A stretch of DNA of 64,000 bases. It comes from Myxococcota bacterium. GTDB lineage: Bacteria > Myxococcota_A > UBA9042 > PHBI01 > JAWLBL01. The translations under genes and the position numbers were made by a program. The DNA is taken from assembly GCA_041687695.1 (NCBI GenBank), contig JAWLBL010000001.1, forward strand, positions 195,361 through 259,360, in the 5' to 3' direction. The notes under the pieces were generated by a model that had not been told where the DNA came from, did no database searches, and was given only the letters and a program-made list of their open reading frames with translations. Below, piece after piece: positions 23,130 to 56,994 of the stretch; the stretch's first letter is position 1, and every line of letters begins with the position of its first letter.

Positions 23130-23549
23130 CTCGGCTCCTTGCAGGGGGAGGGACGGCGACGACGGCGAGGGGCGCCGGCGGGCGGGCGAGCCGCCGGATG
23201 GGGGCGGCCCGGACGAGCGGGTGGCGGAGTGTTTCCCCAAGGGTAACTGCGGCCGAGGGCGGGGTGTCAAGGAGGCGGCCGTCGTCCGCGGACCGGACCG
23301 GTCAGCGGTGGCGGTAGACCCTTCCCGAGTCCGCTGGCCGATTCCGTGGCCCGGTTCCGTGGCTTCGTCGGCGCACCGAGCCCGGTGCCCTGCGAACGGC
23401 CCCCCGGCTCATACACCACTTGACAGGACACTACTCCGCCGTGAGTGGTGAAGCCGGGACCGGGCCCCCACGCACATAGTCCAAGCACCACCTTGGCTAC
23501 TGGGTACCTCTGGGCCTCGCCAGAAGTGGCGAAGCCCCGAGGATCACAC

Positions 23550-23912
23550 CTACCGCTTTGGGTGCATCAGCCGCCACGTCATCGCCTGCACGCGGTCGAG
23601 CAGCGCCAGCGCTTCATCCCCGCGCGCCTTCGGCACCGCGCCCGTCGCGACGAGCAGCCGCATCGCGGCGGACGCCTCGCGACACGAGCCGTAGGCGATC
23701 CTGTAGTGCTGAACCCGGTCACGCCCCGCCCGGCCAGCGCCCTCGGCCAGGTTCAACGGCGTACTTGCGACCGCCCGCACCGCCTGCTCGGCGACGCACC
23801 GCAGTTGCGGACTCACGCCCCGCGTCGATGCCACGACCGCCACCGCCGCCTCGACCGCCAGCGATTCAGCCTGGAGTGAGCTGCCGTTCCGAACCACACC
23901 TTCGTCCTGCAT
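23550..23912 (-). CDS. Four-helix-bundle protein (TIGR02436 / 23S-IVS-like / Avd-like), copy 1
   Basis: QAVRAVASTPLNLAEGAGR and AYGSCRE motifs. The GAAAGGA SD favours ATG 23912 over 23921. Confidence 0.85.
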   Translation of the reverse strand: MQDEGVVRNGSSLQAESLAVEAAVAVVASTRGVSPQLRCVAEQAVRAVASTPLNLAEGAGRAGRDRVQHYRIAYGSCREASAAMRLLVATGAVPKARGDEALALLDRVQAMTWRLMHPKR

Positions 23913-24075
23913 GGGAGCCATCCTTTCGTGTCAGTGGATGCGCCCCCACCCCGCAGGGGTCCCCGGCGGCGTCAAGGGTCGCCGAAGGCGACCGGCGCGC
24001 AGCGCCGGCTTGCCCTTTACGTCGCCGGGGACCACTGCGACCCTCCCGCATCCTCTGACGCGATGGATGGCTCCC
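23913..24075 (+). promoter_or_regulatory. 163-nt branched hairpin, candidate Frpo-like ssDNA promoter (copy 1)
   Basis: Nested inverted repeats GGGAGCCATCC/GGATGGCTCCC, TCGTGTCAGTGGATGCG/CGCATCCTCTGACGCGA and 23953-23972/24019-24038, capped by GAA and GCA triloop hairpins. TTTACG-N17-GACCCT lies on the 3' arm. Confidence 0.6.
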
Positions 24076-24184
24076 TCAGCGACGAGGCCTGTGCCCAGCC
24101 ACCTCAGCGCCCGCCCCACCGCGCAGCGAGCTGCGCGGGCCCTCGAGCACGAGCAAGCTCGTGCAGTCCGGACGCCGCGTCTCG

Positions 24185-24448
24185 ATGACGGCGATGGCCA
24201 CGGCCAAGGCCACGGCCACGGTCTACGGCCACGGTCCACGGCGACGGCCTCGGCCACGGTCTACGGCCTCGGCCTCGGCCTCGGTCTACGGCCTCGGCGA
24301 CGGCCACGGTCTTACGGCCTCGGCGACGGCCACGGCGACGGCCACGGTCCACGGCGACGGCCACGGCCACGGTCTACGGCCTCGGCGACGGCCACGGACT
24401 ACGGCCACGGTCTACGGCCACGGCCTCGGCCACGGCCACGGCCGCGGC
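24185..24448. repeat. Degenerate 6/7-bp tandem repeat (CCACGG/CTACGG/CGACGG/CCTCGG)
   Basis: Directly visible, about 40 units of mixed 6- and 7-nt length. Confidence 0.95.
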
Positions 24449-24610
24449 CCTGATAGCGAATCTGTGCAGCCGAGCCCCTGGACCATGAGGAAGCCTGGAC
24501 CGCCAGCATCCACGCTGCGAGGCGCTTGGTCCCCAACCCCGTTTACCAATCGGGTCTACCGCCGTCCGCGTGGCGAGCGGCGGCCGGACGCTGGACGCGA
24601 GCGGGGCCGC

Positions 24611-24639
24611 TTGACGCGCCGGGAGACGGGGTCGACGGT
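24611..24639 (+). promoter_or_regulatory. Putative promoter of the NTT-HEAT operon
   Basis: TTGACG-N17-GACGGT upstream of ATG 24666. Confidence 0.4.
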
Positions 24640-24665
24640 TCACTCCAACCCCGCCCCCTCGGAAA

Positions 24666-28305: not shown

Positions 28306-28342
28306 GCGCCGGACCTCGGGAACGGGCCGATGGTGCCTCGGC

Positions 28343-28650
28343 GACGGGTCGGACCTGTCCCGGCAACAGGTCGGAGCTGTCCCGGCAACAGGTCGGAGCT
28401 GTCCCGGCGACAGGTCGGACCTGTCCCGGCAACGGGTCGGACCTGTCCCGGCAACAGGTCGGACCTGTCCCGGCAACAGGTCGGAGCTGTCCCGGCGACA
28501 GGTCGGACCTGTCCCGGCAACAGGTCGGAGCTGTCCCGGCAACAGGTCGGAGCTGTCCCGGCGACAGGTCGTAGCTGTCCCGGCGACAGGTCGGACCTGT
28601 CCCGGCAACAGGTCGGAGCTGTCCCGGCGACAGGTCGTAGCTGCCTCGGG
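28343..28650. repeat. Intergenic 22-bp tandem repeat (13 full + 1 degenerate units), each containing a palindrome
   Basis: Unit RACAGGTCGGASCTGTCCCGGC, starting at 28343, 28365, ... 28629. Core GACAGGTC-G-GACCTGTC. No spacers. Confidence 0.95.
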
Positions 28651-55859: not shown

Positions 55860-56058
55860 CGCGCGGACCTTATCACAGCCCCCGCGCCCGCGAGAGCCGG
55901 CGGCCGGCCGCGCCAGGCCCGATCGGTCTGGCTTCAGGGTCGTCGGCGCGTTCCGACGTGTCCCAGGGTGCTCGACGGCCCCGATCCCGGCTCGGGCAGG
56001 TGTCGAGCGTGGGACGGCCGTCGCTCTCGACGGCACCAAGGCCGAGGCCCCGAAGCTC

Positions 56059-56421
56059 TCACCGCTTCGGATGCATCAGCCGCCACGTCATCGCCTGCAC
56101 GCGATCCAGCAGCGCCAGCGCTTCGTCCCCGCGCGCCTTCGGCACCGCGCCCATCGCGACGAGCAGACGCATCGCGGCCGACGCCTCGCGGCACGAACCG
56201 TAGGCGACCCGGTAGTGCTGAACCCGGTCACGCCCCGCCCGGCCAGCGCCCTCGGCCAAGTTCAGAGGAGCACTCGCGACCGCCCGCACCGCCTGCTCCG
56301 CGACGCACCGCAGTTGCGGACTCACGCCGCACGTCAAGGTCACGACTGCCGCCGCCGCCTCGACCGCCAGCGATTCAGCCTGGAGGGAGCTGCCGTTCCG
56401 AACCACACCTTCGTTCTGCAT
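56059..56421 (-). CDS. Four-helix-bundle protein (TIGR02436/Avd-like), copy 2
   Basis: Differs from copy 1 at 8 of 120 aa, with the same motifs and SD. Confidence 0.85.
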   Translation of the reverse strand: MQNEGVVRNGSSLQAESLAVEAAAAVVTLTCGVSPQLRCVAEQAVRAVASAPLNLAEGAGRAGRDRVQHYRVAYGSCREASAAMRLLVAMGAVPKARGDEALALLDRVQAMTWRLMHPKR

Positions 56422-56585
56422 GGGAGCCATCCTTTCGTGTCAGTGGATGCGGCCCACCCCGCAGTCGACGCCGGTGGCGTCAAGGGTCGCCGAAGGCGAC
56501 CGGCGCGCAGCGCCGGCTTGCCCTTTACGCCACCGGGGTCGACTGCGACCCTCCGCGCATCCTTCTGACGCGATGGATGGCTCCC
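56422..56585 (+). promoter_or_regulatory. Branched hairpin, candidate Frpo-like ssDNA promoter (copy 2)
   Basis: Same fold. The stem 56461-56480/56527-56546 carries compensatory substitutions relative to copy 1. TTTACG (56524)-N17-GACCCT (56547) is conserved. Confidence 0.6.
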
Positions 56586-56693
56586 TCAGCGACGCGGCCT
56601 GTGCCCAGCCCACATCAGCGCCCGACCCATCGCGCAGCGAGCTGCGCGATCCGCAAGCACGAGCAAGCTCGTGCAGTCCAGACGGAGCCTCGC

Positions 56694-56946
56694 GATGACG
56701 GCGATGGCCAAGGCCAAGGCCACGGCCACCGCCTACCGCGACGGCCACGGCCACGGTAAGCGGCCACGGTTCACGGCCCCGGCGACGGCCACGGCCACGG
56801 TCCACGGCCACGGCCCACGGCCACGGACTACGGCCACGGCCACGGCCCACGGCCACGGTCCACGGCCACGGCCCACCGCGCACGGCCCACCGCCCCACCG
56901 CCCACGGCCACGGCCCACGGTCCACGGCCACGGCCCACGGTCCACG
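56694..56946. repeat. Degenerate (CCACGG)n 6/7-bp tandem repeat
   Basis: Directly visible. The unit order differs from copy 1 after the first ~30 nt. Confidence 0.95.
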
Positions 56947-56994
56947 ACTCCCGGTCCCCTTGCGGCCCCGCCCCGGCCTCCTATACTCGCGCCC

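Follow-up and report, generated by a model that had tools for sequence, protein, structure and literature searches.

A cassette that occurs twice in a 64-kb window of a Myxococcota genome (the window being the whole stretch of DNA analysed, C1:195361-259360) is probably a non-autonomous transposon of the kind represented by mobile insertion cassettes (MICs) and miniature inverted-repeat transposable elements (MITEs), bounded by terminal inverted repeats (TIRs) and carrying as its cargo a four-helix-bundle gene cassette of the type known from the intervening sequences (IVSs) of ribosomal RNA (rRNA). This interpretation draws on the observed number of copies, on their termini and the duplications that flank them, on selection acting on the gene and its leader, and on the family membership and fold of the encoded protein. 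The ancestral unit would have been about 1.2–1.3 kb long with imperfect TIRs and would have inserted at eight or more unrelated sites, at which a DDE-type transposase acting in trans may have made the staggered cuts that produced 10-bp target-site duplications (TSDs). Its cargo would have comprised hexamer arrays on both sides (long at the 5' end, short and inverted at the 3' end), a rod-shaped leader sequestering the ribosome-binding site, one PF05635/TIGR02436 gene and a hitch-hiking repetitive extragenic palindromic (REP) sequence.

Copies were inventoried throughout the host genome (7.97 Mb, 63 contigs, 99% complete) by BLAST searches with the whole cassette and with individual modules, by a repeat-coverage profile and by a PF05635 search. 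The sequence-only reading of the window had described two copies in the same orientation, 32,509 bp apart, and this was confirmed, both genes being on the minus strand with their stop codons at 23550 and 56059 and their proteins differing at 8 residues (93% identity over the 123-aa open reading frames, ORFs). Whole-genome BLAST showed that these two are not the only copies, as four are intact (A, B, C and D), one is frameshifted (E), one is a gene remnant (F) and two lack the gene (G14 and H5).

Copy A: window 23289-24558, 1,270 bp, gene intact
Copy B: window about 55914-56957, gene intact
Copy C: C11:154761-155847, gene intact
Copy D: C8:256206-257425, gene intact
Copy E: C10:98377-99315, frameshift, ORF of 66 aa
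Copy F: C8:86936-87740, gene reduced to about 100 nt
G14: C14:67941-68341, without the gene
H5: C5:268047-268499, without the gene

All eight elements are intergenic, lying between protein ORFs, and BLAST and module mapping showed sharply bounded repeats with mutually unrelated flanks, in agreement with the earlier description of a small transposase-less repeated unit inserted at unrelated sites. Both gene-less elements retain the canonical 3' terminus, and all their other parts are modules that the full-length element also has; the profile search found no PF05635 genes in this genome besides those of the cassette copies. The genes flanking both window copies are divergently oriented, as had been noted, and this orientation also holds at C and H5 without being general, since the flanking genes are in tandem at D and F and convergent at G14. 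An array and a REP in the same relative orientation, without recognisable ends, were found at 7 more loci. Gene-less units at C7:256600-257800 and C6:166500-167800 consist of (CCGTGG)n, a REP and a short inverted (CCACGG)n without recognisable TIRs, and the C6 unit retains 33 nt of the leader arm in inverted orientation; both are probably remains of decayed cassettes.

Repeat coverage and conserved termini showed that copy A reaches further on both sides (23289-24558) than the interval 23550-24448 first assigned to it. In gene orientation it consists of a TIR, a 90-nt module, a (CCGTGG)n array, a REP singlet, a spacer, a rod hairpin of about 175 nt, the gene, the 3' untranslated region (UTR), a 54-nt fragment found only in A, an inverted arm and the second TIR. 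With the gene on the minus strand, its upstream (5') side holds the array, the REP-like motif and the folded region, whereas the earlier reading had placed some 270 nt of non-coding DNA and the array after it. The similarity reported between A and B was confirmed; it begins about 10–18 nt past the stop codon, covers the gene together with some 270 nt of non-coding DNA, and extends into a CCACGG array. The REP-like motif, previously taken for an end of the unit, is an internal singlet. The features of the two window copies, with strand where one applies, are as follows.

23279-23288, unstranded: left TSD of A, CGGACGACGG in gene orientation, a 9/10 match to the right copy
23289-23308, minus strand: TIR of A at the gene 3' end, 13/20 against the other terminus, terminal bases kept in A, D, E, F, G14 and H5
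23309-23383, minus strand: short 3' arm of degenerate NNNCGG units, inverted relative to the long 5' array (motif and 7-mer counts), module also in D, F and G14
23384-23437, unstranded: terminus fragment of an unrelated multi-copy repeat, in A only, 89–97% identical to the shared 98-nt ends of contigs C37, C60, C49 and C9
23438-23549, minus strand: 3' UTR module common to A, C, D, E and H5 (copy alignment, module BLAST)
23550-23921, minus strand: four-helix-bundle gene of A, 123-aa ORF, likely start at the second ATG at 23912, giving 120 aa
23907-24079, minus strand: leader rod hairpin of A (RNAalifold on A–D), pairing the Shine-Dalgarno (SD) sequence and first ATG with an upstream anti-sequence
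23953-24035, unstranded: separable 83-nt compound palindrome at the rod tip, precisely missing from E and F
24117-24174, unstranded: REP singlet of A, two small GC hairpins, member of a 110-copy family (nhmmer)
24188-24449, minus strand: long 5' arm, a (CCGTGG)n-type hexamer/nonamer array whose length varies among copies (Tandem Repeats Finder, TRF), with 28 CCGNNNCCG motifs and 0 inverse motifs
24450-24538, minus strand: 5' subterminal module common to A, D, E, F and H5 (alignment, module BLAST)
24539-24558, minus strand: TIR of A at the gene 5' end, starting TAGACC (conserved termini)
24559-24568, unstranded: right TSD of A, CGGACGGCGG in gene orientation
55914-56058, minus strand: downstream region of B, module common to D and G14, truncated as the canonical 3' terminus is missing, TSD 5/10, TIR 6/20
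56059-56430, minus strand: four-helix-bundle gene of B, PF05635 at 44.3 bits, ratio of non-synonymous to synonymous substitution (dN/dS) 0.14 against A
56416-56589, minus strand: leader rod hairpin of B, stem with compensatory changes relative to A
56628-56683, unstranded: REP singlet of B (nhmmer family)
56698-56957, minus strand: 5' hexamer array of B, ending without the subterminal module or TIR

Homology among the copies ends at the same bases, the 5' end being T-AGACC in A, D, E and F and the 3' terminus GGTCY-G or GATCT-G in A, D, E, F, G14 and H5. The element begins with TAGACCTGATTGG... and finishes with ...CCGATCAGGTCYG, and these ends form imperfect TIRs that match each other at 16/20 positions in F and at 13/20 in A and D (control P of at least 13/20 = 0.0023). 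The 10-mers immediately flanking the elements match at 10/10 positions in D, 9/10 in A and 8/10 in each of C, E and F, giving a duplication in five of the eight elements, with low values for B (5/10), H5 (3/10) and G14 (2/10). Among 200,000 pairs drawn at random from this genome as a control, P was 0.0025 for at least 8/10, 2.8e-4 for at least 9/10 and 2.5e-5 for 10/10. The duplication geometry was set by D and then applied to A, E and F without freedom, and the joint probability that these four share it by chance, with D setting it, is of the order of 1e-9. Conserved inverted termini combined with flanking direct repeats are the marks of staggered-cut (DDE-type) insertion. The duplicated 10-mers vary from site to site and are therefore target-derived, and the 0–2 mismatches between their two copies fit neutral decay at a synonymous divergence (dS) of about 0.2.

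Element D interrupts a histidine-kinase ORF within its last codons (L109:207-250, equal to C8:256206-256249), and this ORF now reads 14 codons into the element; the far-side copy of the 10-mer continues the kinase frame and is followed by a stop three codons on (original ending ..LPLVGL, stop). Two other candidate features at the junctions were rejected. A 15-bp direct repeat flanking G14 was not accepted as a TSD, as the target region itself tandemly repeats the motif, and the tRNA-like flanks of H5 and of locus L073 yielded no tRNA at the junctions with ARAGORN.

Within the element, the 5' arms of A, D and F hold 26–35 CCGNNNCCG motifs and 0–1 inverse motifs, and their final 110 nt hold 6–9 inverse motifs of the form CGGNNN(N)CGG. 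Comparison of the 7-mers of these 3' ends with the 5' arm gave 9–12 matches as reverse complement and 1–5 direct matches. Complementary arms around the S23p-family ORF, with CCGNNN units on the 5' side and inverted NNNCGG units on the 3' side, are thus present in A, D and F, and the 3' arm is lost in B, C and E. The copies are mosaics in which modules have been gained and lost. A scan of 23250-24650 found neither promoter-like nor terminator-like sites. A degenerate copy of the repeat terminus found at 23384-23437 was also seen 76 nt from an IS256-family (Transposase_mut) fragment at C4:31147-31422.

The only ORF inside the element with coding-like composition is the PF05635 gene. Profile scores were 45.8 bits for A and 44.3 bits for B against PF05635 (cut-off 33.8) and 48.7 bits for copy A against TIGR02436 (cut-off 24). 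The AlphaFold2 (AF2) model of the protein had four helices and a predicted local distance difference test (pLDDT) score of 91, and Foldseek matched it to 2gsc with template-modelling (TM) scores of 0.76–0.83, to 2rld (0.78–0.84) and, for Avd, the accessory protein of diversity-generating retroelements (DGRs), to 4dwl (0.82, at 8% sequence identity) and 8ub7 (0.75). A profile search of PDB sequences also recovered 2gsc (E = 0.003). Both the family membership and the Avd-like fold assigned from the sequence alone were therefore upheld by profiles above cut-off and by the structural model. PF05635/TIGR02436 is a very large family whose function is not known, recognised from 23S rRNA IVSs since the early 1990s and distantly related to DGR Avd; 2gsc, 2rld and Avd each form a homo-pentameric ring of five chains. 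The cassette protein may bind nucleic acid in the manner of Avd and its IVS relatives. The second AUG is its likely start, giving 120 aa, as this codon lies 8 nt after the SD sequence.

Pairwise comparisons of the four intact genes gave dS values of 0.20–0.25 and dN/dS values of 0.10–0.17, with the six pairs about equidistant. These substitution values point to an old burst, after which purifying selection acted on every intact copy. Following such a burst (dS about 0.2), the copies now look immobile and appear to be decaying by internal deletion, yet the four genes and their leaders are retained by selection.

For the leader of the gene, RNAalifold on A–D predicted a single long rod of 67 pairs (-118 kcal/mol) in which GGGAGCCAUCC pairs with GGAUGGCUCCC, the latter spanning the AAGGA SD sequence and the first AUG, and in which the second AUG occupies a 3-nt bulge. 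Variation in the rod sequence is confined to the stem of the central 83-nt palindrome, where 4 pairs have changed on both sides with pairing kept, and a 311-nt fold had z = -7.6. Mean identity was 92.8% for the leader rod, 85.9% for third codon positions and about 56% for the 3' UTR, and the leader is under constraint because its identity exceeds that of both. Rfam returned 0 families at the gathering score for the window, and noise only at E up to 10 for 23850-24500. As RNA, the rod would be expected to block translation, and by analogy with IVS stems it is a plausible RNase III substrate, so that either translational repression or RNase III processing might operate at this structure; cleavage of the Coxiella IVS stems by RNase III is described in PMC4990558. 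The 83-nt unit is a separable palindromic module, because it is exactly absent from E and F and because its 33-nt core (window 23976-24008) is repeated elsewhere, occurring 12 times in contig C1 of the relative G006 (a closed 9.3-Mb genome), for example at 7875718-7875750. Its recurrence there suggests that the core is an independent palindromic repeat family in the G006 lineage.

Related cassettes were compared in genomes of the same order and other families, together with 80 loci from 39 genomes obtained by a collection scan. These 39 genomes belong to Myxococcota, Acidobacteriota, Planctomycetota, Bdellovibrionota and others, and many of the loci are multi-copy or at contig ends. Genome G008, from another family of the same order, carries at least 13 near-identical gene copies and a second subfamily, with each copy built from a 5' CGGNNN array, a compound rod, the gene, a small hairpin and an inverted CCGNNN array. 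The 3' strand of this rod includes a GGAGG SD sequence 7 nt before the ATG. With G008 excluded, short-period arrays occupied 5.9% of the 450-nt zone around the relatives' genes versus 0.6% farther away; array coverage was at least 5% in 14/39 genomes. The 160 nt upstream of the relatives' genes folded with z <= -3 at 21/44 loci versus 3/43 control windows. Folded leaders and short-period arrays thus recur next to the relatives' genes. In G008, the cassettes at L034, L035 and L037 have two arrays of opposite orientation upstream and a single one downstream, and one locus holds two genes in tandem with a 3' module that ends with the leader's starting sequence. This arrangement hints at tandem or circularly permuted units.

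Several results weigh against a TIR transposon mobilised in trans. Duplications are absent in B, G14 and H5, the TIR match of A is weak (13/20), and the 8/10 duplication of C is to be discounted, as its 3' end was selected post hoc. Inspection of the cassettes of three other genomes (G008, Go_SlDig_368 and UWPOB_DELTA1) revealed no clean TIR or TSD, and the TIR shell may therefore be particular to the lineage of the host. An orthologous empty site for copy A was sought through its neighbours, and the NTT-like neighbour was matched in 10/17 other genomes of the order (nine at 41–49% identity and G017 at 32%). The YbhB neighbour was found in 0/11 of the relatives' loci fetched around NTT-like matches; synteny is lost, and consequently there is no comparable site for copy A. 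A metagenome scan for the copy A locus found relatives at 43% identity or less only.

The search for a partner transposase belongs with these points. In the host genome, PF01609, PF13359, PF01610 and PF03050 had 0 matches, and rve and Transposase_mut had one match each, both with internal stops (TAG and TGA, respectively). At least 12 groups of 2–6 contig ends carry an identical terminal stretch of about 98 nt (e.g. C37:1-98, C60:1-99, C49:1-98 and the end of C9), with shared termini that include CTAGGAGCCTGTAG..., CTAGATGACC... and GTAACCGTCCGATATC..., and none of the 12 repeat termini matched the cassette TIR (best 9–11/20). A 19-mer IUPAC pattern of the TIR returned background counts only in 107 genomes of the class, and the single exact foreign match, in G082, was rejected as it falls within a coding repeat rich in Cys. 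The contig-end groups are the edges of unassembled multi-copy insertion sequences (ISs), whose interiors, and hence transposases, are missing from the assembly, and the missing transposase is weak evidence because these interiors are absent. A 13-mer fuzzy search for the TIR gave 252 matches, mostly coding, and was too noisy for use. The elements seem to have been orphaned by a transposase that is extinct or unsampled; its IS would have termini starting YRGACCTGAT, and the 10-bp length of the duplications would suggest an IS4-type enzyme.

Alternatively, the cassette could be self-specifying, with its protein binding the arrays or the rod and recruiting a host or other nuclease, so that the TIRs and TSDs are intrinsic with no borrowed IS shell and the ORF is the mobility factor. 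Such a role for the IVS ORF was proposed by Ralph and McClelland (cited in PMC4990558). In its favour, no other ORF is present, purifying selection acts on the gene in all intact copies, and the inverted arrays at both ends resemble subterminal binding-site arrays. The gene also occurs along with arrays and a folded leader in distant genomes, many of these units being multi-copy or at contig ends, and no cognate IS was found, although this absence counts for little in an assembly without IS interiors. However, no nuclease or transposase chemistry is known for a helical bundle of 120 aa, the gene-less G14 and H5 exist, and the cassette ends in G008, Go_SlDig_368 and UWPOB_DELTA1 do not share a TIR or TSD, and on balance we regard a self-specifying cassette as unlikely. 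A more general proposal can also be put forward, under which IVS-type four-helix-bundle cassettes would form one widespread class of DNA transposon, the cassette's own protein binding the subterminal arrays and marking the ends for a transposase or host nuclease, and the RNA rod gating its synthesis. The copies described here would then keep the footprints of this process (TIR and 10-bp duplication) in a hexamer-armed, high-GC lineage. This generalisation is speculative and we would give it only a small chance of being correct.

The sequence-only reading had proposed a non-autonomous mobile unit mobilised in trans, which agrees with our interpretation, and had further supposed a single-stranded intermediate; under such a model, a REP-associated tyrosine transposase (RAYT) or another Y1 HUH enzyme would act in trans by recognising the REP-like hairpins. 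The genome does encode 11 Y1_Tnp matches, 10 above cut-off, comprising six long IS200-like and five short RAYT-like proteins, and the 58-nt REP of the cassette belongs to a family of 110 copies (nhmmer), many of them in arrays or as inverted doublets 25–37 nt apart. Dense arrays and doublets of the REPIN type (paired REPs in inverted orientation) are found at C58:1873-3000 and C20:144466-145437, and the cassette itself contains very stable palindromes. However, none of the 11 Y1_Tnp loci lies beside a cassette or is flanked by the 58-nt REP, the REP lies within the element and has lost half its length in the intact copy D, and other REP copies have spread without the gene. The ends of the element are TIRs with 10-bp TSDs, and to our knowledge IS200/IS605 and REPIN elements, which transpose by Y1 enzymes, make no target duplications. 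As the REP is internal, TSDs are present and no Y1 gene adjoins the cassette or REP, the single-strand route is not supported and we consider it very unlikely. Reverse transcriptase, the other partner suggested, was also not found (RVT_1, 0 matches in the host genome), and because the assembly has no reverse transcriptase the cassette protein is not a DGR Avd.

Segmental duplication or recombination between arrays or REPs without any transposition, the flanking repeats being chance or microhomology, might be entertained in a repeat-rich genome with 504 tandem arrays, 61 CCGTGG-type segments, 110 REPs, mosaic copies that gain and lose modules and three elements (B, G14 and H5) without TSDs, but it is hardly credible when homology stops at identical terminal bases in independent loci, the flanks are mutually unrelated and A, D, E and F share one TSD geometry at a joint chance of about 1e-9. 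Among the 61 CCGTGG-type segments, 14 directly adjoin a REP copy, always in the same orientation. The 504 merged arrays are those of at least 90 bp (TRF), mostly with periods of 21–48 nt, one example in the window being 28339-28643 (period 22), and many of the genome's tandem arrays appear to be intergenic minisatellite families.

A TIR transposon mobilised in trans, the interpretation that we prefer, makes this locus a case of concrete transposition footprints for an IVS-type cassette outside rRNA, with a decaying shell around a gene and a folded leader that are each under selection. The cassettes of G008, from a different family of the same order, follow the same plan of array, rod and gene. 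The cassette shows how a puzzling four-helix-bundle gene family spreads, and not yet what the protein does. A literature search found no description of PF05635 genes on elements with TIRs and TSDs.

Among known systems, DGR Avd shares the four-helix-bundle fold with the cassette protein (4dwl, TM 0.82), but the assembly contains no reverse transcriptase and the cassette no pair of template and variable repeats. The REP/REPIN-RAYT systems are similar in that the cassette has an internal 58-nt motif of a 110-copy REP family with inverted doublets and the genome has RAYT-like genes; they differ in that the cassette has TIRs, TSDs and a coding gene, the REP being a nested passenger. The resemblance to MICs and MITEs extends to the lack of a transposase gene, the TIRs and TSDs, several dispersed copies, a passenger gene and internally deleted derivatives. 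MIC231, for example, is a mobile insertion cassette with IS231 ends, and IS231 makes 10–12-bp duplications. The cassette differs from these elements in that no cognate IS with the same ends was found in the assembly, which lacks IS interiors, and in that its cargo is not an ordinary passenger: it is a PF05635 gene with array arms and a hairpin leader, and such genes are themselves multi-copy in many phyla.

The cassette is also comparable to the 23S rRNA IVSs of Coxiella burnetii and Leptospira, which encode the same protein family (S23p/PF05635) and likewise place the gene within complementary arms, with short tandem repeats upstream and a long double-stranded RNA stem suited to RNase III. 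IVSs insert at helix 25 or 45 of 23S rRNA, whereas the cassette lies outside rRNA genes, with no rRNA in the window according to Rfam and with its elements between protein genes. The Coxiella IVS paper (PMC4990558) describes a terminal stem of 28 bp and, upstream of the ORF, variable heptameric repeats, and cites as hypotheses for IVS spread that they are "remnants of transposition" or that the "ORF [is] needed for mobility". In contrast to the IVS, the arms of the cassette are hexamer arrays of very unequal length, and it possesses outer TIRs, 10-bp target duplications and a nested REP; the hexamer arms, the nested REP and the 10-bp duplication are the features particular to the cassette described here.

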